This document shows, piece after piece, positions 6,358 to 52,283 of a DNA stretch of 52,283 nucleotides. The translations under genes were made by a program, and so were the position numbers. This stretch comes from a virus (lineage: Duplodnaviria; Caudoviricetes), in IMG/VR virus record IMGVR_UViG_3300020171_000039, positions 1 through 52,283 of that record, one strand, 5' to 3'. The first letter of the stretch is position 1, and each line of letters begins with the position of its first letter. The notes beneath the pieces are model-generated. The model made no database searches, had not been told where the DNA came from, and was given only the letters and a program-made list of their open reading frames with translations.

Positions 6358-6615
6358 CTAGGGATCAGACGGATCAGGGATCTGTCCGATCTTGACCAGG
6401 TACTCTCCAGCTTGAGAGAGTAACTCTACGAGCAGAGGCAAGTCATGAGGCTTGAGGTTCGTGCCTCGTCGAAACTCTCCGCCTTGTCGGATCCTTCGGT
6501 AGATCACGGTGTCGTAGTAGACCCTGGAGTCGATCTCGTTGCGATAGACAGCTACGAGGATCTGGCCCTTGCCGTAGGATCGTTCTCTGATGGAGCTACT
6601 CTTGGAGCGGTTCAA
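6358..6615 (-). CDS. Small protein, possible PC4/Whirly-like ssDNA-binding fold
   Basis: TTG start with GGAGG; VAVYRN...YYDTVIYR...GEFR...DLPLL pattern recalled from small PC4-like proteins. Confidence 0.5.
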   Translation of the reverse strand: MNRSKSSSIRERSYGKGQILVAVYRNEIDSRVYYDTVIYRRIRQGGEFRRGTNLKPHDLPLLVELLSQAGEYLVKIGQIPDPSDP

Positions 6616-8422
6616 CCGGATCCTCCGGACGAATATGGATCTTGGCTTCGGTCAACCTTCTGTCGTACTCGCCTCGGACCAGTCTTGTGGGTAACGGCTC
6701 TTTCTGTCCTGCAGCCATCACCTTCGACCTCCGGAATACCTCGTTCAACAACTTCCCGATCGGAGCAGAGGTCTCCGAAGCTAGTTGGTTCTTGACAGCT
6801 TTCTTGAACGTCGATGTCACGTCCTCGGTCAGATCCTCGGGCTTGGCTCGGATAATCTTCATGATCGAAGCATAATCAGGACCCGGTCCAGGTTCTTCGG
6901 GTACCTCGTCTTCTGGTTCCTCCGGCTCCGGACCAGGCTGCTCCGGCTCTGCAAACACCGGCGCAGGGGATTCTGAGCCTCCGAGGTCTGGGCCTTCTCC
7001 GGGCACGTCTTGGATCGGTCCGAATCTCTCGATCTCGTCGTCAGAGAATCCGAGTAGCGACTTGAGGAGATAGCCTCCCCACTCCTGCTGTCTCAGACCC
7101 AGAGCTGTCCCGACGTCCAACGACCGCTCAATCACATCCAACGTAGTCTGCATCACCTCAAGTCGTTGGAGCAGCTCGATAGGAGACGGTGGGACCATGC
7201 AGACCTTGAACGTTCCTTTGCTCACGGACAAGTCAAGCAAAGCCAGGTGGATCTGGAGGATCCTCGAGATCCCTGCCATGACGTCACGTTGTAGCCTCGA
7301 AGCCTGACGACCGAACTGTACCGATCTCCACGAGAATGCTCTGCCACCTTCCTCTGCTGACTCCCCGAACCCGAACCACTCCTTCTTCGCTCGCATCGAA
7401 GCGTAGAGCTGGTCGTAGAACAGGTCCATGTCGTAGGCTGCGTAGATGTTCGGCATCCCCGGCGTCGTCTCGATTCGTGACTGCGACCCGTCCCATGTCG
7501 GCCAGATCAGATCTTCGGTCAGGCCCAGCGGATTCCACATCACATCGAACTCGCCCGAGTCGGGATTCTTGTAGACCGTGCGTCGCATCGCTGCTTTCCA
7601 ACGACCGAGCTTCTGGAACATCTCCATCTCGGTCGAACGGGTCCCGACGTCGACCATGATGTTTCGACGATCCAGAGTGTTCGATAGTCTGTAGACCATC
7701 AACATGTCCGAAGCGGTTCGGACCTGTTTCAGCGGACGTTGGGTGTTCTTCAGGATCGAGGTTCCGTAGAGTTCGCGAGTGTCTCGTTCCCGGTCTCGAG
7801 TCGTGACTGTTGTACGTCTGAGTCTGATGTGAACAAAGTCCCAGGGCTTGTACAACTCTTCGAGGTCGTCGACGTCCCAGCTCCGTCGCAATCCTGTGTC
7901 GTCGTAGAAGTGACCCAGGAGTGTCCCGTCTTCGGTCTCGACACGCTCGTAGTTGCGGGGATGCTTCCACTCGACCGCTGTGACTCCAACTCCGGGCTCG
8001 CCATGGACCCGAGCTGGGAGGTCTCCTAGGGTCGCCGAGTCTCGGATGATCGCGTAGATCTCGTCGTTGATCTCGAGGTTCTCGAGACACGTGTTGAGGA
8101 CGGACTGGATCCCTTCGTCTGGAGCCTCGACCCAGATCGACAACCCCGAGTCAGGATCTTCCTGAGTCGCTTCTTCTGCGTAGGCGTCTAACACGCCGGA
8201 AACCTCGGGCCAGTTGTCGAGTTCTTCGTAGACCTCGTACAACTCACGACGTTTGTCTGCCTGGTCCGCCATGAATCCGCGGTACCTCTCGACTCTGGAC
8301 TTGATCTGCTCGACGTCGTAATCTCCGAGCTCCTTGTCCTGAGGAGTCCTGATAGCTCTTGAGGCGCTCGATGGAGCGAATAGTCGAGCTAATCGAGCTC
8401 TGAAAGTGTTGTTCGAGAGCAT
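6596..8422 (-). CDS. gp20: Portal protein (T4 gp20-like)
   Basis: YEELDNWPEVSGVLD.YAEEA, YGTSIL, MVYRL...DRR..MVDVG, EDLIWP and IETTPG motifs; acidic Pro-rich C-terminal linker. Confidence 0.9.
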   Translation of the reverse strand: MLSNNTFRARLARLFAPSSASRAIRTPQDKELGDYDVEQIKSRVERYRGFMADQADKRRELYEVYEELDNWPEVSGVLDAYAEEATQEDPDSGLSIWVEAPDEGIQSVLNTCLENLEINDEIYAIIRDSATLGDLPARVHGEPGVGVTAVEWKHPRNYERVETEDGTLLGHFYDDTGLRRSWDVDDLEELYKPWDFVHIRLRRTTVTTRDRERDTRELYGTSILKNTQRPLKQVRTASDMLMVYRLSNTLDRRNIMVDVGTRSTEMEMFQKLGRWKAAMRRTVYKNPDSGEFDVMWNPLGLTEDLIWPTWDGSQSRIETTPGMPNIYAAYDMDLFYDQLYASMRAKKEWFGFGESAEEGGRAFSWRSVQFGRQASRLQRDVMAGISRILQIHLALLDLSVSKGTFKVCMVPPSPIELLQRLEVMQTTLDVIERSLDVGTALGLRQQEWGGYLLKSLLGFSDDEIERFGPIQDVPGEGPDLGGSESPAPVFAEPEQPGPEPEEPEDEVPEEPGPGPDYASIMKIIRAKPEDLTEDVTSTFKKAVKNQLASETSAPIGKLLNEVFRRSKVMAAGQKEPLPTRLVRGEYDRRLTEAKIHIRPEDPVEPLQE

Positions 8423-40173: not shown

Positions 40174-40878
40174 TCAGACCCTCATCGGTACGCCGAGGTC
40201 TCCGGTACGTGACCTCAGTTCATTAGTCAGCTCATTGATCTCGGAGATCGACTCGGACAGCAAAGCTTCGCCATCCATCCGGAACTCTCGCTCCGAGCCT
40301 TGGACGCTGTTGAACTTGGATCGCATCCGGCCCAGAGGATACTTGGCTTGTGACAACGAACACCTTAAGAACCAATCCTCGAAGTCTGCAGGGACCTGGG
40401 CGATGGTGCGATCGATAACGTAAGTGTAGGCAACGGTGTGGGACGTGACCGGGATCGGAGTGATGTACAACTTCGCAGACTCGAGATCGAACTCCCAAGC
40501 GAACTCAGCAGACAACACTCTCCGGGCCAGGTTCAGGTGTGCCATGTCCGATGCGAACGTCCCTACATCGATCGGTTGCTGAACCGTTGACCACGGGTTG
40601 AACACATCGTACTGAGCCAACGAAGGTCGGATCGTAGGAGCAGGGACGCAGTTGACCAACCCTTTGCCGTAGTCGGTCAGTACATAGACCTGCTGACCCG
40701 AGTTGAGTCCGAGAGACGCTGTCAGCCGTCTGGGATGGTATCGATTGAACAGTCTCAGGGCTTGGGCGATAGACTCGTCTAGCTGACCTGTCGTGAGCTC
40801 GACACGGACACCTTCGGTTGCATCCTGCCCGAGCATCCTTTGGATATGGAGTTTGACAGATGCTTCCGACAGTGCCAC
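40174..40878 (-). CDS. gp13: Neck / head-tail adaptor (T4 gp13-like)
   Basis: RMLG...VELT..QL...I..AL, LYITP.P and LGRMRSKF...MDGEAL motifs. Confidence 0.85.
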   Translation of the reverse strand: MALSEASVKLHIQRMLGQDATEGVRVELTTGQLDESIAQALRLFNRYHPRRLTASLGLNSGQQVYVLTDYGKGLVNCVPAPTIRPSLAQYDVFNPWSTVQQPIDVGTFASDMAHLNLARRVLSAEFAWEFDLESAKLYITPIPVTSHTVAYTYVIDRTIAQVPADFEDWFLRCSLSQAKYPLGRMRSKFNSVQGSEREFRMDGEALLSESISEINELTNELRSRTGDLGVPMRV

Positions 40879-40904
40879 TTAAGCTCCTTCAAGTCAGAGT
40901 CCTG

Positions 40905-40955
40905 CGATCCGTCAGCGGAGACCCCGGAAGTCGCCTCCCAGGGTCTCCTGGATCG
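40905..40955 (-). terminator. Bulged GC-rich hairpin directly after the major capsid gene (no U-tract)
   Basis: CGATCC/GGATCG and GGAGACCC/GGGTCTCC arms. Confidence 0.5.
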
Positions 40956-40956
40956 T

Positions 40957-42381
40957 CTAGGCCGTGATCGTCCCGGTGCAGTAGAACCCGCCGTCCACAG
41001 GCATCCGCCCGTACCGGCTCCAGGTCCCCTTGCGGACGAGGAAGTCGGTCAGGGTGATCGTGGGGGTCTGGGTGAACATCTGGTACGGAGCGTAGATGTA
41101 ACCCGTGTCCCACATGTTGTCACCCTTGTGGCCCATGAGGTACGTGTCGGTGTTGATGTAGCTGTCCTTGTAGACCGTCCACTGGTTGTTCAGCACGCCG
41201 ATCTTGTGGACGCCGCGACCCTTGATGGCTCCGCCGGTCCGCTTGAACCCGGGCAGAGTCTCGATGACGTTGCAGACCCCGACACCGGCCACGATCCACT
41301 CGGCCTCGGCGCGCTGGGTCGTGGAGTAGATCCGGTTCTGGGCCTGGACCAGGCTGTCGAGGAAGGAGAGCTTGTGCTCGGTGTACGAGACACCAGCACC
41401 CACGGTCCGGGACCACGCAGGCTGGACGTTGGTCGAGATCCGGAACAGATCGTTGATGATCTTGTGGTCGATCTCGTACTTCATCTCGCTGACCTGGGCG
41501 GCAACGAGCTCGACCTCGGCATCGAGACCGTGGACGATCTTGTAGTCGGTCTGGACATCCAGCGACCACTTGCTCACGATCCGGTCGGCCTGGGCCGTCA
41601 CCGGACGCGAGGTCAGGACCATGTCGGTCTCGGGCTGGAGGTACGTGCCCTCGTTGTCGTAGTCGTACGAGGCATCGATGGTCGCTGCGGCAGTGATGTT
41701 CGCGGAGAACGTCACGTCGTATGCGCCAGTGGAGTAGTTGATGGTGTTGTTCCCGCCTGCATTGACGTCACCGATCAACGCGCCTGCGCCATCGTCGGTG
41801 ACCAACAGACCGTCAGAGGTCACGATCTGGAGACGGCCTGCCAGAGCCGGGACCCAGGCCAGGTTGCCGGTGTACTGGGCAACCGCACCGGTGCCGACAT
41901 CGAGCTGCTCCGAGTCGATCTCCTTCGAGGTGAACGACGTCGAAGGATTCTCGATGATGTCACGACCAGCAACCGCTGTACCTTTGGTCACGCCGTACAG
42001 GAACTTCAGGAAGAAGACCAGCGACGTCGGACCCTGCATCGGCTGGGTCGAGACGAGCTCATGTGCGATCAGGTTCGGGAACACTGCCCGGACGATCGGG
42101 AACGCCCACCGGTCAAAGGACCCGACGTACTGGAGCCGCGTGGTCTCGTCCAGGGCGTCGTAGTACTCTTGCTGGTTGTGCATCATCAGAGCGGTCATGA
42201 GCCGGACTTTCTCGTCCTTGATGCCTTCGAGCATCTCGCCCATGGTGTACCGCACCGTGGTCTTGGATCCGCGGCGCTCGTACGCCTTCTCGAACAGGAT
42301 CCGGTCCTTGGCCTTGGCGAGCCCTTCCATCAGCCGGGTCGCGTCCTCCATCCCTTTGTTCACGCCTTCACGAATGATCAT
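40957..42381 (-). CDS. gp23: Major capsid protein (T4 gp23-like) with Ig-like insertion
   Basis: VFPNLIAHELVSTQPMQGPT, WS...QTD....HGLDAE.EL, EID..II, VYKD.Y and GYIYAPY motifs. Confidence 0.96.
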   Translation of the reverse strand: MIIREGVNKGMEDATRLMEGLAKAKDRILFEKAYERRGSKTTVRYTMGEMLEGIKDEKVRLMTALMMHNQQEYYDALDETTRLQYVGSFDRWAFPIVRAVFPNLIAHELVSTQPMQGPTSLVFFLKFLYGVTKGTAVAGRDIIENPSTSFTSKEIDSEQLDVGTGAVAQYTGNLAWVPALAGRLQIVTSDGLLVTDDGAGALIGDVNAGGNNTINYSTGAYDVTFSANITAAATIDASYDYDNEGTYLQPETDMVLTSRPVTAQADRIVSKWSLDVQTDYKIVHGLDAEVELVAAQVSEMKYEIDHKIINDLFRISTNVQPAWSRTVGAGVSYTEHKLSFLDSLVQAQNRIYSTTQRAEAEWIVAGVGVCNVIETLPGFKRTGGAIKGRGVHKIGVLNNQWTVYKDSYINTDTYLMGHKGDNMWDTGYIYAPYQMFTQTPTITLTDFLVRKGTWSRYGRMPVDGGFYCTGTITA

Positions 42382-42420
42382 CTTGTCCTCCTCGAAAGGA
42401 TGCTTGTTGGCTTCACCCGG

Positions 42421-44946
42421 CTACTTCACTACCGCTAGGAATCTAGCGAGTACGGGATCGGCGTCCTTGGTCTCATGGCGTCGTGGACGCCGGTCACGCT
42501 TCTTGGATTCATGAGCAGGCCCGTCGTCGAGGTCGATCATGTATCCGTTATTACGAGTGTACTCGAACTTCTTGATTCGGTATCCGAGCTGCTCCAAAGC
42601 CACCTCGATATCATCCGCCAGGTCTGAATCTTCCTCGACCTGGACGCCGATCTCAAGGATGTCACCGTTCCATTCGTACCCGATGGCGTCGGCGTTCTCG
42701 ATCTCGTACTTGTCCAGGATATCCTGGATCTTCATCGTAGCGGTATATTCGTTGACCTCAGCTTCGTTCTTGCGAGGCTTCCGAGTACGCTTCTTGGATT
42801 CGTCGTACCCAGGGTCCATCCACTTCCGGTAATCTCCGATCATCTCCTTGACGACAGGGAACTGGCGGAGGTGCGTCTCGATCTGGTCGACAGCGTTGGG
42901 ATTGATTGAGGACCACGCGTCTTCCTGGTCGAAGGTGTCAACCCAGCCCCGGACGAGCTGCTCGAACTGCTCCTGGACCGCTGCTCCGAGCTTGGTGTAC
43001 CCCTGACCGAACTGGAGAAGTTGCTCGATGTCCTCTTCCTCGTAGGCCTCCTTGAGCTTCTTCTCGGAGAGGCGTCCTCGAACCGTCGACTCCTTGACGG
43101 CCTTGGTCCACTTCTGGATCTTGGATTCGGGAAGGTCTAAGCCTCTCGCCTTGAACTCGTCCTGCATTCCTCCGAGAGCATTCCCAAGGCCATGCCGGTT
43201 AGGACCTGATTTCTCTGTCGAGAGCTTGATCTGAGTCTTATTGTACTCGGCCTTAAGATCTGTATCGGACAGATCCTTCCAAGGACGCTCGTCGACATCC
43301 GCAGGATCCGGACCTGCCGGAGGACGGAACCGAGCAGGAGGACTCCCAGAGGCCCACTCGTTGATCGCTGCGACAGCCTGCTGACGGGTCATGCTCTTGA
43401 AGTGCTCGGTCATCTGCCGGATCAACAGGCCCTTGAGCTGTCTCCGAGCCTTGGTCTTCGCCTCCTGGATGCCTGCGGTGGCCTTGTCGAGGAACTTGGA
43501 GTAGGCCTCGTACTCAGGCTCGTCGTCATGGATCGTCACTACCCCAGGGAACGTGATCCCGTACCGGCCAGCGTTGTCCAAGATCTCGACGACAAGCGAC
43601 TTGAGATTGCCTCGGACCTTCTGTGCCAAAGCCTCGTGGTTGGCAGAGAACCGATGACCGTAGAGGTACTGGTAGAGAGCTCCGAACATCGACTCGGCAG
43701 CTTCACCAGCGTACTCAGGAACAGACTTCGGTGCGACCTCGTTCACAGCCTCGGTCTCGACCAGCGTCGCCCACACACGCCTGACGTCCTTGAGAGTCTC
43801 GCACGCAGCGAGCATCTTCTTCGCCAGCTTCATGTGCGAAGGCTTGACCCGCTCGGTGACCTTGGAGATCAACGCCTGGCGCTTCGCAGCCTCTTTCTCG
43901 TCGAGGATCGCCTCGAACACCTGACGCAAGGCTCCGGCCTCGGTCTTGGACTTGCGCAGCTCTGCGATCTCGTGGACAGCTGCGGTCACGATCTTCTCAG
44001 CAGCCTCGGCCCGGGCTTCGGCATCGTCGTCGTACAGCTTGGTCACTGCGTCGTCCTTGGCTCCGCACTCAGGACACGCCATCGGACCACCCTCGGGCAG
44101 GCCCTTGCCACGCTTGAACTTCGCACCGCACTCAGAACACTTGTACGAACCCGAGTCCTTGGACATCACGAACTGCAGATCTTTCTGGACCGTGCCGAGG
44201 GTCTGCTCGATCCGACGAAGCTGGTCCTGCTGGGCTTGGGTGACGGGGTCGATCTCGTCAGCACGCTCGACAAGCTTCTGAGAAGCAGAAGCCACGAGAC
44301 CCCAGTCCGAGATCTCCCGGGCCAGGTCGACACACTTCTCCAACATCTGAGGCGACGTCGACACGGCTTCGACCAACTGCTTCAGGACGCTACCGGCCTG
44401 CTTCGATTCGATCGACTCGGACACACGTGAAGGGTACGCCCCAGGAGTCGAAGGGTTGATCACGAAGTCCCAGGTCTCGGCCTCGTAGTCATCCTGGACA
44501 CAGTCGGACCCGGACTCGTGCTTCACGGACCCGCGTCCTCTGGAGGAAGTGCCCAGGCGTACGCCTGCACGGAACATCGTCGCAGCGATCTGTCCGTGAG
44601 GGGTCTCGAGGATGTCGTAGGTAGCGTTGATCGTCCCGTCCGGAGCAAGGTCGACTTCGGTGACGATGTGCGACGTGAGCTCAGGACGCTCTTCGTCCTC
44701 GGGCTTGGGATGTCCGAGGTTGCCGACCATCTGACGAGAAGCTAACCGCTCCTTGAAGTCGACCGAACCAAGGACCTTCTCCCAGACCTTCCTGGGATAG
44801 ATCCGGTTGTTCTCGTTCTTGGTGTCACAGGCCTGGGACTTGCCAGCGACTCTCATCAACACACCGGACGGGAGTCGTGCCCGGTCTTCGGTGATGATCT
44901 CGTATTGCGTCGTAGGTCTGTAATAATCGATCAACATCTTGGTCAT
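42421..44946 (-). CDS. gp21: Prohead protease (gp21-like) fused to scaffold (gp22-like) and extra domains
   Basis: NENNRIYP, GNLGHP, LETPHG, LGTSSRGRGS and WDFVINPSTPGAYP motifs; long helical and charged C-terminal region; CxxC...CxxC zinc ribbon. Confidence 0.9.
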   Translation of the reverse strand: MTKMLIDYYRPTTQYEIITEDRARLPSGVLMRVAGKSQACDTKNENNRIYPRKVWEKVLGSVDFKERLASRQMVGNLGHPKPEDEERPELTSHIVTEVDLAPDGTINATYDILETPHGQIAATMFRAGVRLGTSSRGRGSVKHESGSDCVQDDYEAETWDFVINPSTPGAYPSRVSESIESKQAGSVLKQLVEAVSTSPQMLEKCVDLAREISDWGLVASASQKLVERADEIDPVTQAQQDQLRRIEQTLGTVQKDLQFVMSKDSGSYKCSECGAKFKRGKGLPEGGPMACPECGAKDDAVTKLYDDDAEARAEAAEKIVTAAVHEIAELRKSKTEAGALRQVFEAILDEKEAAKRQALISKVTERVKPSHMKLAKKMLAACETLKDVRRVWATLVETEAVNEVAPKSVPEYAGEAAESMFGALYQYLYGHRFSANHEALAQKVRGNLKSLVVEILDNAGRYGITFPGVVTIHDDEPEYEAYSKFLDKATAGIQEAKTKARRQLKGLLIRQMTEHFKSMTRQQAVAAINEWASGSPPARFRPPAGPDPADVDERPWKDLSDTDLKAEYNKTQIKLSTEKSGPNRHGLGNALGGMQDEFKARGLDLPESKIQKWTKAVKESTVRGRLSEKKLKEAYEEEDIEQLLQFGQGYTKLGAAVQEQFEQLVRGWVDTFDQEDAWSSINPNAVDQIETHLRQFPVVKEMIGDYRKWMDPGYDESKKRTRKPRKNEAEVNEYTATMKIQDILDKYEIENADAIGYEWNGDILEIGVQVEEDSDLADDIEVALEQLGYRIKKFEYTRNNGYMIDLDDGPAHESKKRDRRPRRHETKDADPVLARFLAVVK

Positions 44947-45773
44947 TTGAACGTCCTCCGTAGAAGCTCTCGTTCGTGATTGTCTACAGGCTCGTCAAGG
45001 AGCTGCTTCATGGTCACGCCGAGGTCTTCGTCGGATCCCCTCATTGCGTTGAACCGCGCTAGCTTCTTATAGAACGTCTTTCCCTTAGCGGAACGAGCGA
45101 ACTGTTGAATGCCCTTTTGTTGAGCAGCTTTGTTCTTCCTTGCGCTCTTCCTTGCAGCTGCTGACTTCGAGGCGTCGGGTCGTTCAGTGTCCCGTTTGTC
45201 CCGGTCTCGTTCGGGCTTGTCGATGTCTTCGTCGATTCTTGCAAGGAAGATATTCTTCGTGTTCGTTGACTCGAATTCAACAGGCCACCGAGGACGATAG
45301 GTCTTCTTGGCGAATGCAACAGTCCTGATCCTGTCGACAACGAACATCTTGATCGTGCTCTTGTTGTCGTCGTAACCGAAGAACACCACGGTCTTCTTCG
45401 GAGGCTTGTCGTATCCGTTGACGTGGATGTTCCTTACACGCAACGAATAAGGAAACACGGTCCTGTACACCTTGCGATCGTCGGTGACCTTGGGACGATA
45501 GAAGATCCGAACCGCCTTCCTTGATCTGGCTGCTCCTGCGATGAACTCGATGATCTCTTTCGATCGGCTGTTGAGGTAGCCCCAGACCGCTCTGGACTTC
45601 CCGATTGGACGACCTGGATCGACGGCTAGCAGATTCGAACGTTCCGGATCTGTGGTCATTGCTGTGTACTCAGCGAGGAACAGCTCTTCGATCAAAGCTT
45701 CTTCTACCCCGATCCCGATCTTCTCGCCAAGTCTCAGGCGCTGAGGGTATGTCAGTCTTGGTGTCTCAGCCAT
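44943..45773 (-). CDS. WYL-domain protein with basic prohead-core-like C-terminus
   Basis: IAGAA..RKAVRIFY...RTVFPYSL...FFGYD....IKMFVVDRI WYL pattern; directly upstream of the protease. Confidence 0.75.
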   Translation of the reverse strand: MAETPRLTYPQRLRLGEKIGIGVEEALIEELFLAEYTAMTTDPERSNLLAVDPGRPIGKSRAVWGYLNSRSKEIIEFIAGAARSRKAVRIFYRPKVTDDRKVYRTVFPYSLRVRNIHVNGYDKPPKKTVVFFGYDDNKSTIKMFVVDRIRTVAFAKKTYRPRWPVEFESTNTKNIFLARIDEDIDKPERDRDKRDTERPDASKSAAARKSARKNKAAQQKGIQQFARSAKGKTFYKKLARFNAMRGSDEDLGVTMKQLLDEPVDNHERELLRRTFK

Positions 45774-46335
45774 TGACGAACTCTAGGATCACGGCCTCGG
45801 GACTTGCACCTCGGAGGACTCTGTCGATCATGTCCCCGGCGTCGACAGGATCAATAGCCTTGACGACCTCGCCGTCTACCACGACCTTCACAGGCTTTCC
45901 CTTGTGATCGAAGAAGAACTGGTAAGCCTTGTTGCCTTTGTTGCCAGCGTACACGAATCCTTCCTTGGTCTTCTCGAAGGTCTTGTCGGATAGCTTCGCT
46001 ACTTGGCCTGCTCCGAATCCTAGTCCAGCGATGAGCAACGGTATCTCACGGACTATTGCAGCTCCGATCTGTGCAGTGATCCCTGCGAGCTTTCCCAGTC
46101 CCATGATGATCGGTGCCAGCAGCGCCGACTCGTCAACCACCTCCACGGTCTCGCCAAGGCCTAGACGCTTCTTCGCTATCCCGGTCACATACGACCACTC
46201 CCGATCTGTGAACTTCGACACAGGCTTCTTGAACTTGGTAGCAGCACTCTTCTTCGCTGCTGCCCAGTAGTCCTCTGCTCTGTCTGGTGTCTCTCCGGCC
46301 TGTCGAGCTAGTGCATATAGAACAGCAGCTGGCAT
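45766..46335 (-). CDS. Phage head-module protein
   Basis: MP...LA..AG.....E.YW..AK...WSYVTGIAKKRLG N-terminal domain recalled from large phage head clusters. Confidence 0.65.
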   Translation of the reverse strand: MPAAVLYALARQAGETPDRAEDYWAAAKKSAATKFKKPVSKFTDREWSYVTGIAKKRLGLGETVEVVDESALLAPIIMGLGKLAGITAQIGAAIVREIPLLIAGLGFGAGQVAKLSDKTFEKTKEGFVYAGNKGNKAYQFFFDHKGKPVKVVVDGEVVKAIDPVDAGDMIDRVLRGASPEAVILEFVNG

Positions 46336-46337
46336 CG

Positions 46338-46763
46338 CTACCTCCCTGAGAGAATCTGTTCGAGTTTGTTGATGTCGTCCTGGAGAGTCTCGATCTGTCG
46401 AGTGATCCGATCGATGTCGTAACGGTTCCTTGTACTGTCCTTGAGCTTCTCGATCATCAACTCCTTGAGGTTGCCAAGAGCTTTATCCATCGCTGTGAGG
46501 TTGGACTGGATCCTGGTCTTGAGGTCCCCGACCTTCTCAGCCATCTCTGCCTTGAGTTCGTCCTTGGTCTCTTCAAGAGCTGTGTCGAACTTGTCCTCGA
46601 CGGCCTTGTCGACTTCCCCGACCTGAACCCCTGACTCGGTCCATCCCGTGATCTCTGAGAGCTTAGGACCTCCGAACAATGCGAGGAGAACAGGCAACAG
46701 AATCGTGATCCAGTGCTTGACACTCTTGGGATCGAGTACGATCTTCCCGGTCTCGTCAGCCAT
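46338..46763 (-). CDS. Membrane-anchored coiled-coil protein
   Basis: Hydrophobic WITILLPVLLALFGG followed by coiled coil. Confidence 0.6.
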   Translation of the reverse strand: MADETGKIVLDPKSVKHWITILLPVLLALFGGPKLSEITGWTESGVQVGEVDKAVEDKFDTALEETKDELKAEMAEKVGDLKTRIQSNLTAMDKALGNLKELMIEKLKDSTRNRYDIDRITRQIETLQDDINKLEQILSGR

Positions 46764-46950
46764 CGTCTTCCTCTTCGTCAAGTTCCAAGTCGATATTGTC
46801 CAGCTCTTCCTGGATCTTGTCGAACTCTTGTTCGATCTGGAGCTGCTGGATCACCAGCTCTGTTTCTTCTAGAAGGGCTGTAGCTCTATCAACGAGAGAA
46901 GGCTCAAGAGGCGAGCCTGCTAAGACGAATAATAGAGACAGTATTCTCAT
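46756..46950 (-). CDS. Small acidic protein with signal-like N-terminus
   Basis: MRILSLLFVLAG followed by acidic coiled coil. Confidence 0.5.
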   Translation of the reverse strand: MRILSLLFVLAGSPLEPSLVDRATALLEETELVIQQLQIEQEFDKIQEELDNIDLELDEEEDDG

Positions 46951-47025
46951 GGAGAACCTTCGTTGTGTCAGCTCCAAGAAGGCGCTTATGTGAGCAGGAG
47001 TTCTGTCGAGCGTAACGAGTAAGAG

Positions 47026-48614
47026 CTACTCGTACCAGCCCTCGAAGCCAGCGCTTACGATACCCGAGCCTCCAGTAGCATAGCTCCGGATCTCGATATC
47101 AGTACCAGCAACGAAGGACGGAGGCTCTTCGAGGATCCTCTGGAAGTTGGCGTAGGCGATCGACTCTCGTGACGAGATCTTCCAGGACTCTCCAGGAGGA
47201 CGGTACCACAACGCGAACCTCGTAGAGACCGACCCGGCTTCCGATCCCATCCACGAGGTGACGTACAGAGTCTTCCCAGCTGGGACAGTGTAGACCGCTC
47301 CATCCGCTGCTCCTTCCCCTGCTGGTATCAGCAAGAACGGACCGGAGGCTCCTGTATCTGCGATGGTCAACGCTCCGGCGTTCACCCCTCCAGTCCCGAC
47401 AGCGCTACACTCGACTCGGAACACTCGGAACACTCGAGGTTACTTGTTGCCAGTGCCATCCCGTTCGTCGGGAAGGTGTCGCTCTGGAACGCTCCGGCTG
47501 CGTCCAGACCGTACAGCGTGACGCTATGACAGCCTGTTCCAGGAACACCAGCGCCCTTGGCAGGATCGTCCTCGACACTTCCGGAGATCACGGTGAAGGT
47601 GTCAGCAACTACCAGGTACGGCATCGGAGTCGAAGTATTCCTCACCGTCTCCCAGGTAGCTCCGACCGTAGGATTGTATCCCCACACGTGGAACGCGACC
47701 TTCCCAGGCACGAGGTTCTTCGCGATGCTATAGCCCCGAGGCTCTGCTGATACCATCAGACTTCCGCCGTTGATAGACCTGACATTCTGGAACAGTCCCG
47801 AGGTCGTGTCCATCGCTGCGATCACAGCCTTGACCAGTTCAGCATCGTCTTGGTCAACGATGCTATCATTAACCCGGTGACTCGACGCCTTGAATCCTTG
47901 TCGAAGCAGGGTCTGGATCACGAACGTCCCTTGTGCTACTGCCCCGTTGGTGTACGAGATCCTGTAGTATCGTGCGCTAGGAGTCCACGAATACACCTTA
48001 CCCGAAGCTCCGCCTGTCAAGGTGTACCAGTCCGAATCGATAACGGTCGTCTCGTCATGACTCCACTCTACCACGAGACCGTCAACCGCTGAATCCTGAT
48101 CTGAGACGACCCCGAGGACAACAATTCCATAGGCCAAGGTGTCAGCCCACTCTCCGACGAACGACTCACCTCCTCCTAGAAGCGTGGTCGTAGAGTTCTT
48201 CGCTACGACCACGCTCACTGCCCCGATCTCTGCAGCGCTGTTGTCGTAGTCGAGGTACTTGTCATCTACGGTACCTCGGACGCTGTAACGACGAGTAGCA
48301 GCGTCGTACGTGATCTCGCTGAAGGGGTTGTCGTCGAGTCCTCTTGTGCGGATCGTATAAGCATCATCCGCCTCAGATCCGGCATACGTCGCCAGGACCA
48401 GCACCGATCCAGTTGCTGACACGATCCGATCCACGACTCTACGAGTCTCGTTGTAGAACAGAGCTCCGACGACACTCGAAGGGAATGTCGTAGCAGCGTC
48501 GGTGACCTGCTCTGCTATCGCTGCGGTGACTGTACCTGCTTCAAGTTCAGTCCCGATGTAGGCTGCGAGAGCCTCTTCGTATGATGCGAATGATTCGTCG
48601 TATGCACGCTTCAT
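47026..48614 (-). CDS. Beta-rich virion-like protein split by a frameshift near 47435
   Basis: ORFs 47382..48635 and 47026..47433 read as one continuous domain (GYNP..ET..GTG..V...GLD..NG / RVFR..GTGG.N.G..YTVPAG..TDIEIR). Confidence 0.6.
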
Positions 48615-48680
48615 GAGACCTCCTGATTGTACCACTACGGTTCAATAAGAAGGCACTTGTGTACAGGAGGATCAGGTCTG

Positions 48681-48836
48681 CTAGCCTCGGAGGTCTTCGT
48701 GGAACGGAGGGTATCTCGGATCTGAACTGAAGGTCTTGACTACGATCTTGATGGCCTTGACAAGGAATCGTTCACAGATCAGACATCGGGTCTCGGTGTC
48801 GTTGTAGTAGGCTCTGCAGTAAGGACAGGTCTTCAT
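48681..48836 (-). CDS. Small zinc-finger protein (MKTCPYCRAYYNDTETRCLICERF...)
   Basis: 51-aa ORF translated by hand; CxxC-x10-CxxC. Confidence 0.55.
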   Translation of the reverse strand: MKTCPYCRAYYNDTETRCLICERFLVKAIKIVVKTFSSDPRYPPFHEDLRG

Positions 48837-48859
48837 CCTTGCCTCGATTCTGAGAGGTT

Positions 48860-49363
48860 CTAGCCCGAGGCAAGGGCCTTCTTAGCCTCGCGTGGAAACT
48901 CGCGGTACACCTTGTCTGAGGCTGTCAACGGACCATAGTACCTGGCATCCTCGGGGTTGACGTACTCGACAACACCACCGAGTCTGTAGACAACCGGAAC
49001 GAACCTGACCCCTTTCCAGTCCCTGATCTTGGTGTAGATCTCGTACTCCCTGGTCTGGTTCTTCAGAGTGATCTCGACGAAGGGAGGAACGATGCCTCGT
49101 TCTCTGCGTCCTTCACGTTCGGTGAATCCGACCCAGAGCGTTACATGACCCGGACCTGGAACAGGATCCTGTTTCGGTTCAACCGGGGCTGAGATCTCGA
49201 GAGGAACAGAGACCAATTCAGGTCCTTGATACTCGTAGCCACAAGGGCACTCAGTTCTGGGATAGCCTCCTCCATGATCCAAGTTACCGCAAGCAGGGCA
49301 ACGCTTCGCTGTGTCGTCTCGCATCGCTAGTCGGTAGAACTCGTGACGGCTGCTCAGTCCCAT
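48860..49363 (-). CDS. Zinc-ribbon hypothetical protein
   Basis: CPACG...CPCGY. Confidence 0.65.
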   Translation of the reverse strand: MGLSSRHEFYRLAMRDDTAKRCPACGNLDHGGGYPRTECPCGYEYQGPELVSVPLEISAPVEPKQDPVPGPGHVTLWVGFTEREGRRERGIVPPFVEITLKNQTREYEIYTKIRDWKGVRFVPVVYRLGGVVEYVNPEDARYYGPLTASDKVYREFPREAKKALASG

Positions 49364-49866
49364 TCGTCATCATCTCCTTCGAGAGAAGCCAGAGCATCTA
49401 GAGCTTCGTCCTCAGGGATCACTCGGACTCGGTGGATGATCTCTTCCGGGATCTCGGAGAGACGAGAGAAGACGATCATACTATCCGGAGACTCGGTACG
49501 ATCCATGACGTGCCAGTCGTCGGTCCAGTAGAACCGTTCTTCCGGAGGATGCGCTTCGTTCCATCGACGGAAGTCGATCTTGTAGAGGACCGCGTCTCCG
49601 CTTAGATACTCATCTCGGTAGAGAACAGGAAGCCACTCGTCAGCATCCCCGATGTGAACGCCGTAGAATCCGGACAGAGCCTGATCGAACGGGTGCTCAA
49701 TCTTGAATGCTGTCTTCGGATCGGATCCAACGGCTACGAGTCGTTCTCCGTAGAAGTCTGCTTCGGGATACGCATCATCCCCAGTCCTGAGCTCGTTATC
49801 CTCGAACTCGACCGAAGTCGTACCCTCAGTTAAGGCTGCTCGTAGGAACTCTTCTCGGATAGTCAT
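49354..49866 (-). CDS. Acidic hypothetical protein (MTIREEFLRAALTEG...)
   Basis: ATGA-coupled start at 49866 with GAGG. Confidence 0.7.
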   Translation of the reverse strand: MTIREEFLRAALTEGTTSVEFEDNELRTGDDAYPEADFYGERLVAVGSDPKTAFKIEHPFDQALSGFYGVHIGDADEWLPVLYRDEYLSGDAVLYKIDFRRWNEAHPPEERFYWTDDWHVMDRTESPDSMIVFSRLSEIPEEIIHRVRVIPEDEALDALASLEGDDDEWD

Positions 49867-50977: not shown

Positions 50978-51324
50978 TTGCTCCTGTACCGATGTGACCA
51001 GTTACGAAGACCGAGGCCTTCCTTGGGATAGTACCTCGGGACAACGATACGATGAGGAATCAGGACCTCAGCAGGTTCGTAGACTTCCTCGTACGTACAG
51101 CACCTGCTACGAATGAAGTCCCAGTGCTCTACTCTCCGAGCTGCAGCCTTCATCGATCGGGTGAGATGACGAGACTCGTCGCAGAGGTCCGAACCTGTGG
51201 ACGAGATCGTGAACGTCGAGGCTCCTACGGCGTAGTCTGGGTACAGGAAGACGACGTTCCCTGTGACGTGGTGGATGGTAGCCGTGGAACTTGCAGGACT
51301 CCAGGCTTGAGTCGATGAGATCAT
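50974..51324 (-). CDS. Hypothetical protein
   Basis: Coupled ORF with GGAG RBS. Confidence 0.55.
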   Translation of the reverse strand: MISSTQAWSPASSTATIHHVTGNVVFLYPDYAVGASTFTISSTGSDLCDESRHLTRSMKAAARRVEHWDFIRSRCCTYEEVYEPAEVLIPHRIVVPRYYPKEGLGLRNWSHRYRSK

Positions 51325-52199
51325 TCAGCTCTCCTCATCTGGATCCGTGACGCTCCTGGTGTAGGAGTCGGGACGATCCTCACGATCTCCCAACGTTTCG
51401 TCTTGGTCCTGAGACCGGTCTTGAGACCGAATCCGAAGTCCTTCCCGTCGCAGTAGAGGAAGTAGTACGGAGCTTCGTCCTTGGTAGAGTAGCTGACGAT
51501 GTCACCTGGTTCGAGCCGGTCAGCGTCGGAGGTGGCTGCTGCTACCTGAACATCGTAGTCGAATGTCTGTTCCTTGATCGTGTCCTCGACACCGGTCCCG
51601 TCAGGATCGAAGAAGTCCACGTAGGACTGGATGGTCTTGACCTGGGCAGGTGTCCAATGGTACGACCGCTTCCCATCCCGGTCCTTGGGATTGATCAGTT
51701 CGGTCTTGTCGCCCTTGCACTTATCGAACCAGTCCTGGAGGCTCGTACCTTTCTCCTGCGACATCGCAGCCCAGTCACAGACCATCTCTGCCAGGTCCGT
51801 GTCGGACATCTTCTGGGGGTCGCCTAGAGCTTCGGGATGGTGGCTGTTGTCCTTGTTCTTGACGTGGTTCCCTGTTGCTCTGTCAACCTGGTCCTTGACA
51901 CCAGGAGGATACTCGAAGGTCTTCCCTTCGTCCTTGGACTTGTACCACCACGTCAACCAGACGTACGGTTCGATCTCGCCTTCGCTGTACTTCGAGGCAT
52001 CGTGTACGTCGGCACGATCCTTGAGTAGCTCCGCCTCGTCGACCAGACCGGAGGTTGCAAGAGCCTCGCAGTTCTGCTGGACCCTGGTGATGTGGTTGGC
52101 TGTACGACGGTGGTAGAAGTCGAGCATCTCTTGTGTAGGCTCAGGAAGGCTGTCTTCTTCCTGAAGTGCGAGCTTCGTGAAGATGTCTGCGGGATTCAT
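51321..52199 (-). CDS. HD-superfamily phosphohydrolase-like protein (DUF5662-like)
   Basis: H...V, HDASKYS, H...N.HHPE and EMVCDWAAMS metal-binding motifs. Confidence 0.75.
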   Translation of the reverse strand: MNPADIFTKLALQEEDSLPEPTQEMLDFYHRRTANHITRVQQNCEALATSGLVDEAELLKDRADVHDASKYSEGEIEPYVWLTWWYKSKDEGKTFEYPPGVKDQVDRATGNHVKNKDNSHHPEALGDPQKMSDTDLAEMVCDWAAMSQEKGTSLQDWFDKCKGDKTELINPKDRDGKRSYHWTPAQVKTIQSYVDFFDPDGTGVEDTIKEQTFDYDVQVAAATSDADRLEPGDIVSYSTKDEAPYYFLYCDGKDFGFGLKTGLRTKTKRWEIVRIVPTPTPGASRIQMRRAE

Positions 52200-52283
52200 C
52201 GGATAGCCTTCCAATTGTCATCGAACATCATAGCCGGGTCGCTTCCGGTCCCACCGTAGCTTAAGATGTACTTCACGACACCT

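Follow-up and report, generated by a model that had tools for sequence, protein, structure and literature searches.

The record IMGVR_UViG_3300020171_000039 of IMG/VR (Duplodnaviria; Caudoviricetes), which stems from an uncultured giant phage and is analyzed here as a whole and referred to as the window (52,283 bases, 56% G+C), carries an open reading frame (ORF) that joins a WYL domain to a strongly basic tail directly ahead of a prohead protease gene. WYL domains are the ligand-sensing parts of bacterial regulators that switch on bacteriophage exclusion (BREX), cyclic oligonucleotide-based antiphage signaling (CBASS), and DNA damage responses. The ORF and its parts, with amino acid (aa) positions in the encoded protein, are as follows.

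44943..45773, minus strand: whole ORF, 276 aa, by its homologs a chimera in which a WYL core precedes a head-module basic tail
45618..45773, minus strand: acidic helical N-terminal segment, aa 1-52; net charge -5, model confidence low
45264..45617, minus strand: WYL-family core, aa 53-170, one helix and a five-stranded barrel; net charge +17
45318-45551, minus strand: Pfam WYL match (PF13280), aa 75-152
45228..45236, minus strand: junction I180-D181-E182, predicted S77 cleavage site, kept in both parent families
45039..45227, minus strand: basic module, aa 183-245; net charge +12, motif KS..AK..RKNK..KG..F.RSAKGK.FYKKLARFN
44946..45038, minus strand: acidic C-terminal end, aa 246-276, finishing LLRRTFK; also present in P0034, P0027, P0030, P0032, and P0035, the tail proteins closest to the window protein

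ORF 44943-45773 bears a true WYL domain. The Pfam WYL model matches with 23.6 bits against a gathering cutoff of 21.8 (E 5.1e-5), inside the span of about 45272-45560 where a sequence-only reading of this DNA had placed a WYL-like domain, and 29 of 49 relatives also match it at E<=0.01. In an AlphaFold2 model built from a six-sequence alignment, aa 61-160 reach a mean predicted local confidence (pLDDT) of 76-90 per 10-residue block, and the WYL core consists of one helix and five strands. The best PDB matches to this model in Foldseek are BrxR, PafBC, CapW, and DriD. In VIA-align, the top 14 chains are all WYL proteins (Z 8.7-12.4), including PafBC 6sj9 (12.4; 2.4 Å over 91 residues), CapW complexed with single-stranded DNA (ssDNA) in 9c5g (10.8), DriD (10.5), and BrxR (10.4); below these rank a Cas-related WYL1 protein (8.1) and Hfq, Sm, and designed SH3 barrels (at most 7.6). 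Both the above-cutoff profile match and the predicted WYL/Sm-like fold, nearest to solved WYL proteins, bear out the assignment. A search of the WYL-family profile against PDB sequences gave chance matches only.

CapW, BrxR, DriD, and PafBC share the helix and five-stranded Sm-like barrel with the window protein (Z 10.4-12.4, root mean square deviation of 2.4-3.1 Å over 84-91 residues) but have winged-helix DNA-binding and WCX domains, and the window protein has neither. The sequence-only reading had already seen no recognizable helix-turn-helix or WCX domain, and this holds: Pfam gives no other family at E<=1 for the 276-aa protein, and the model contains no second confident folded domain. 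Beyond aa 165, nothing but disordered and helical basic sequence appears in the model, and this part belongs to the tail family. Unlike CapW-type regulators, the window protein is phage encoded, lies in a late structural operon, and is fused to a head-module tail. It has a single globular domain, whereas polyvalent proteins (Iyer et al. 2017, PMC5512222) are multidomain proteins with at least two effector-type domains. Long relatives of the WYL core do resemble polyvalent proteins in being multidomain and in lying in the structural gene block; the available text of PMC5512222 treats WYL only as a CRISPR-linked sensor and not as a polyvalent module.

Judged by its homologs, the window protein combines two separate families in one chimera. 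A protein search of 1.84 billion representatives returned 65 matches at E<=0.001, which cover either aa ~43-196 (the WYL core) or aa ~173-269 (the tail); both are covered only by the window protein. The WYL-core set comprises 26 matches at E<=1e-10, the window protein included, and a match to P0029 was dismissed as a SEA-repeat false positive. The phages closest by capsid are L013, L014, and L022, whose capsid protein is 58% identical to that of the window. In L013 and L022, where the region upstream of the tail-module gene is covered, a homolog of the 189-aa ORF that lies upstream in the window is followed by a 265-aa protein, P0034, whose identity to aa 175-276 of the window protein is 33% (E 9e-16). 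The first 170 residues of P0034 form a zinc-ribbon-like piece and a beta domain, with no WYL domain and no fold that could be assigned; the model of this part had a pLDDT of 61.6, no Foldseek match at E<=0.001, and a best VIA-align Z of 5.0. No WYL relative was found anywhere in the sister-phage records of 79-104 kb. In L013, the tail-module gene and the protease gene are separated by two paralogues (L013:4328-6202 and L013:6199-7602, plus strand) that encode 624 and 467 aa and resemble each other in their N-terminal thirds; the window lacks both, and neither could be placed in a family.

The tail belongs to a module that seems to be an undescribed conserved part of an unnamed head gene. Its motif, K-S..A-K..W/A-R-R/K-N-K..K-G-I..W/F..K-S..G-K-x-F-H/Y..L-G/A-R-F-N (alignment A5), was found in 16 viral loci of 25-37% G+C, compared with 56% in the window. 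All 16 loci have S77 protease and gp23-like capsid genes downstream of the module gene, which directly adjoins the protease in 13; in 15 of the 16, the portal gene lies directly upstream, preceded by the large terminase gene. The order terminase, portal, module gene, protease, capsid is found in two cultured phages, Rhizobium phage RHph_TM30 (Kleczkowskaviridae; gp280) and Maribacter phage Molly_1 (Molycolviridae; gp071), and the module gene is known from these two families, some Vibrio phages, and many uncultured phages. The head part of these proteins varies, being WYL, a zinc-ribbon/beta domain, or absent, and in a low-GC clade the C-terminal half is acidic and helical. Two features that the sequence-only reading had seen, a basic helix and a prohead-core-like tail, are parts of a conserved module that precedes the protease and capsid genes at every locus and recurs in the sister phage. 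The C termini of the tail proteins and of the proteases (window, L013, and L031-L044) are loosely alike within each phage (for example, ..KLDEKFNDIL and ..KSFLENLTR); these short amphipathic ends may be capsid-binding or alike by chance.

The genes around the ORF place it in a head assembly block.

45766..46335, minus strand: upstream 189-aa ORF; its homolog precedes the sister-phage tail-module gene (L013/L022)
42421..44946, minus strand: prohead protease of 841 aa, with the S77 domain at aa 39-178 and a zinc-ribbon-like stretch at ~aa 265-300
40957..42381, minus strand: gp23-type major capsid protein, with L-D-E79|TTR at the likely propeptide boundary
40174..40878, minus strand: gp13-like head-tail adaptor (phrog_211); the WYL gene is not next to it in the window
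6596-8422: portal gene, distant from the WYL ORF in the window

The ATG of the 276-aa ORF overlaps the stop of the 189-aa ORF by 8 nucleotides (nt), and its own stop overlaps the ATG of the protease ORF as ATGA; the protease ORF is translationally coupled to the WYL ORF. The first ~180 residues of the 841-aa ORF product constitute a prohead protease of type S77 (PF03420, E 5.9e-12; phrog_207, E 3.8e-35), followed by several weak Pfam zinc-ribbon matches at ~aa 265-300 and a charged helical extension of ~600 residues, so that the product is probably a protease-scaffold fusion. The capsid gene after it matches PF07068 (E 8e-54), and gp15-like, sheath, tube, baseplate, helicase, and primase genes lie elsewhere in the window. 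In three other contigs the gp23-like capsid gene consists of two ORFs 0.7-2 kb apart (L018:8606-11053, L019:1797-5200, and L044:9556-11776), and in L043:7516-10521 a 1-kb gap separates an unmatched 189-aa ORF from the 459-aa capsid ORF behind it; these arrangements suggest an intron, an intein, or a homing-endonuclease insertion.

The slot invites comparison with T4, in which gp67 and gp68 lie between portal and protease, as does the tail family. T4 gp68 is acidic in its front part and very basic in its back part, and tail proteins also have acidic and strongly basic halves. The sequence-only reading had given the window gene the position of T4 gene 68. The position directly before the protease stands, with the window portal elsewhere; homology to gp68 does not, and kinship was rejected since neither profile nor pairwise similarity was found, a search of the T4 locus with the tail profile hidden Markov model also giving nothing.

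The WYL cores form what appears to be a small, phage-only family. Its members have variable ends around an invariant core (Y92, K95, R104, P108, S110, R112, R114, G120, F132, D135, K142, F144, and E166), all of which the window protein keeps, and they come from viral and metagenome contigs only. Scans of bacterial and archaeal genomes (185,579 species for the WYL core) found no relative of the WYL core or the tail. Searches by tblastn of 50,697 phage records with the whole protein and with the tail alone gave no match, and viral contigs scanned with one protein at a time, either the WYL or the capsid protein, yielded nothing. In PHROGs, the window protein has no match at E<=0.001, and 5 of 49 WYL relatives fall into phrog_13105, of unknown function. 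A tree of 40 WYL cores, which leaves out two intein-bearing proteins, puts the window protein within the main clade (support 96/98) and resolves no sister. The WYL cores of the window and L001 share 53% identity, whereas their capsid proteins share 40%, their proteases 33%, and their sheaths 30%. Our literature search found no description of a phage-only family of bare WYL domains in a structural gene block.

Three inteins interrupt WYL cores at three different conserved places, two in L002:4717-7902 (plus strand) and one in L012:2626-4983 (plus strand). Those in L002 lie after 'PKVT' and between 'PY' and the invariant Ser, both with HNH-type endonuclease parts, and that in L012 lies directly ahead of 'SIKMF'. 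No paper on inteins within WYL domains was found in our literature search.

Long members of the family gain a GNAT acetyltransferase and further regions, and many members end in E-x-T-T-S-G..G-[AS]-Y-[DE]-V-P-L-G followed by a polybasic run, which may be a second targeting or DNA-binding tail; the window protein has no such YEVPLG and polybasic end. The YEVPLG-type motif occurs in L001:8445, L002:7819, L005, L006, L007, L008, L019, and L023:15805-17880, as well as in L025:1495-3282 and L026:1483-2472 (both minus strand). It is interior in long proteins and also ends non-WYL proteins with weak nucleotidyltransferase matches. In L006 and L007, the WYL core and the tail-motif C-terminal part are in one long protein. 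In L023, a TnsA-like endonuclease/NUMOD3/Ros-MucR-like gene (L023:14096-14941, plus strand) followed by two small ORFs stands between a 161-aa WYL gene and a 691-aa tail-motif gene; given the single proteins of L006 and L007, the two L023 parts may have become separated. Papain-like (C..H..D) and ParB-like (DDGNHR) stretches picked out by eye in P0008 and P0013 were not confirmed by Pfam, for which the limits were E<=0.1 for P0008 and for the 633-aa L005 protein (taken as P0013) and E<=0.01 for P0013. P0013 had no match in the PDB, and the ESM Atlas gave no usable lead for P0013 or for the tail.

Possible cleavage sites at the domain borders connect the two halves of the chimera to the neighboring protease. 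T4 gp21 cleaves after L/I-X-E (PMC9026906, in its available part), a rule resembled by strings at the domain borders here. A hydrophobic-x-Glu string lies 40-56 aa ahead of GKxF in 32 of 32 tail proteins (null of 36% in the same proteins) and 6-22 aa past the WYL core in 19 of 23 WYL relatives (null of 26%), counts that concern a short motif with a chance rate of 26-36% in mutually related sequences. Among relatives with a long N-terminal extension, 16 of 26 have a double-hydrophobic-Glu string in the first 35 residues (null of 13%), and all seven related capsid proteins have hydrophobic-x-Glu just ahead of the mature part. In the window protein, the N-terminal strings are LIE29, IEE30, and LAE35, and aa 1-52 may be a propeptide. 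The conserved Glu site appears supportive of cleavage and falls short of proof. The sequence-only reading had flanked the WYL domain with Glu sites at LFLAE35|Y and VEFE168|S; both strings are present, and the second was rejected as a protease site, as its P3 residue is not hydrophobic and its second Glu lacks conservation. What is conserved instead is I180-D181-E182|D.

We interpret the protein as a modular prohead-core cargo protein that would be cut by the neighboring S77 protease, a tentative reading to which we assign a probability of roughly 45%. In this scheme, the C-terminal basic module, the constant element of the gene ahead of the protease in a broad range of distant T4-like phages, would most likely recruit the protein to the head core during its assembly, and the N-terminal part would be exchangeable cargo: a basic, stand-alone WYL domain here and a zinc-ribbon and beta domain in the sister phage. 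The protease would probably cut after I-D-E182 during head maturation, perhaps with extra cuts at the LxE strings within the first 35 residues. Cleavage would free a folded WYL domain of ~15 kDa, which would be retained in the head with the DNA; the WYL domain is probably loaded into the particle. By analogy with CapW, BrxR, DriD, and PafBC, the freed domain most likely binds single-stranded nucleic acid.

T4 offers a precedent for several of these steps. According to the available text of PMC9026906, the T4 core contains gp21, gp22, gp67, gp68, Alt, and internal proteins incorporated before the shell, and its short targeting propeptides are cut off by gp21, with foreign fusions packed and delivered. 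The T4 targeting peptide is N-terminal and 10-20 aa long, whereas the conserved module in the clade of the window is C-terminal, and T4 has no WYL domain cargo. SPN3US, phiKZ, and 201phi2-1 are also large phages with an S77-type protease cutting after Glu and with long propeptides proposed to direct proteins into the prohead (PMC7411985). For SPN3US, the available part of that paper gives propeptides of 111-130 residues and a proposal that the C-terminal propeptide of the protease targets it to the core. There is no sequence relation to this group, its rule is A/S/G-x-E as opposed to hydrophobic-x-E here, and packaging in it is proven by mass spectrometry, whereas the window protein is known from sequence alone.

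Several observations weigh against the packaged-cargo reading, in addition to the limits of the Glu-site counts. The sequence-only reading had the WYL gene itself in the core slot, and for the family as a whole this fails: most relatives place it in the neck slot. The slot after the gp13-like adaptor holds the WYL gene in 9 of 13 other contigs, counting placement at one end of the adaptor-p163/p178 stretch where a contig is cut. The WYL gene lies between the adaptor and p163/p178 in L001, L002, L005, L006, L007, L008, L019, and L023 and two genes past the adaptor in L012; it is one gene ahead of the sheath gene in L009 and L011, follows a weak Hc2-like gene in L010, and follows the portal gene and two small ORFs in L003. 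The neck slot is empty in L015, L018, and L020, so the WYL gene is accessory and dispensable there. For the tail module, no Pfam or PHROG family covers it in the tail proteins searched, and the case for a core role consists of gene position and composition. Similarity of the tail to T4 gp68 is at the level of noise (hhalign probability of 0.12%, BLASTP E of 32). Both cultured homologs, in RHph_TM30 and Molly_1, are annotated as hypothetical, and the Molly paper, in its available part, reports no mass spectrometry. Even incorporation into the core would not prove retention, since T4 core proteins are mostly degraded or expelled.

The ligand is a further point on that side. CapW contacts ssDNA through S144, R164, R168, and R184 (PMC11662680, available text). 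By a rough mapping of aligned ranges, not at residue level, R148 (the 'DRI' arginine) corresponds to CapW R184 and FFG to the WHV strand, and only this one of the four contact positions seems to be kept. The arginines on either side of the WYL strand are missing, with V, F, or Y at the positions of CapW R164 and R168, and S144 could not be assigned a counterpart. Single-stranded nucleic acid is therefore no more than a likely ligand.

Two other explanations are each possible but unlikely. In the first, the protein would stay unpackaged as a late cytoplasmic sponge or modulator that binds ssDNA or another ligand in the infected cell, its production alongside the head proteins being due only to its place in their operon. 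The CapW and BrxR WYL domains respond to ssDNA during infection (PMC11662680; bioRxiv 10.1101/2025.11.13.688357; both in their available parts), the core and the tail are both strongly basic, so that the tail would add nucleic acid affinity, and the WYL gene behaves as an accessory gene where it usually lies, as counter-defense genes often do. However, the tail module is fixed ahead of the protease in all 16 loci and in the two cultured phages, the conserved Glu site points to head assembly, and late expression would be ill timed for blocking sensing early in infection.

The second, which we rate no higher than the first, makes the protein a core or scaffold part that serves assembly only, in head building, head sizing, or DNA condensation, and is then degraded or left behind. 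T4 gp67 and gp68 in the same slot are core proteins whose cleavage fragments for the most part exit the head (PMC9026906, available part), and the low-GC tail proteins have the acidic helical C-terminal half expected of a scaffold. The free exchange of the head part is ill suited to a fixed structural role, however, and between the window and L001 the WYL core is better conserved than the capsid protein or the protease. Together with the inteins at conserved core sites, this conservation argues that the WYL core has a function of its own.

An extension of the packaged-cargo reading, close to the decoy idea of the sequence-only reading, appears doubtful. Here, the basic module would be a general loading handle by which a broad group of distant T4-like phages put swappable domains into the head as cargo, and the injected bare WYL domain would mimic a sensor and soak up the ssDNA signal so that defenses stay off; the captured ssDNA would otherwise release the WYL repressors BrxR and CapW. 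Restricted infection induces BREX through the ssDNA pocket of BrxR (bioRxiv 10.1101/2025.11.13.688357, available text). Our literature search found no mention of phage-borne WYL decoys, including in the available part of that preprint.

Rather improbable is a role at the DNA end or neck, in which the WYL domain, located at the portal or neck, would grip the packaged genome by a terminal or single-stranded stretch so as to hold or protect it. T4 gp2, an end protector, is the model for such a role. It would suit the 9 of 13 contigs in which the gene is flanked by the gp13-like adaptor gene on one side and by p163/p178 and gp15-like genes on the other, as well as the polybasic run that ends many members. 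In the window, however, the gene lies outside the neck slot and its product is without the polybasic YEVPLG tail, and the long relatives carry enzyme domains such as GNAT that suit a cargo better than a plug. Finally, an assembly artefact or a decaying, functionless fusion is hardly credible even though only one sequence, on one contig, shows the fusion, because the 276-codon frame is open and coupled to both neighbors, a second assembler reproduces it, identical fragments occur in two other studies, and the invariant family residues are all retained. There is no start codon near the join. The contig from the other assembler (3,562 nt, depth of 21.6), from a run that is possibly the source sample, covers 44000-46500 without a difference. 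The identical fragments (X2 and X3) cover parts of the ORF, and no contig of runs X2-X4 spans all of it.

Should the WYL domain travel in the particle, it would become a candidate for an injected countermeasure against a host infection sensor. The module ahead of the protease appears to define an unnamed head gene that is testable in cultured phages, and if it is a true loading handle, it could be used, as the T4 targeting peptide is, to package foreign proteins in phage heads.

Completeness ratings of 33% and 51% for the related 79-kb and 104-kb records point to full genomes of ~200 kb or more. Runs containing the stretch are labeled as groundwater and freshwater metagenomes, with no RNA run among those listed as holding it, and a promoter and terminator scan of 40500-49500 gave results at chance level. 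Farther upstream of the WYL ORF, overlapping minus-strand ORFs of 135 aa (47026-47433) and 417 aa (47382-48635) match the back and the middle of phrog_8198, respectively, and may be one frameshifted gene. A 297-aa ORF at 51321-52214 (minus strand) has a Pfam DUF5662 match (E 6.6e-28).

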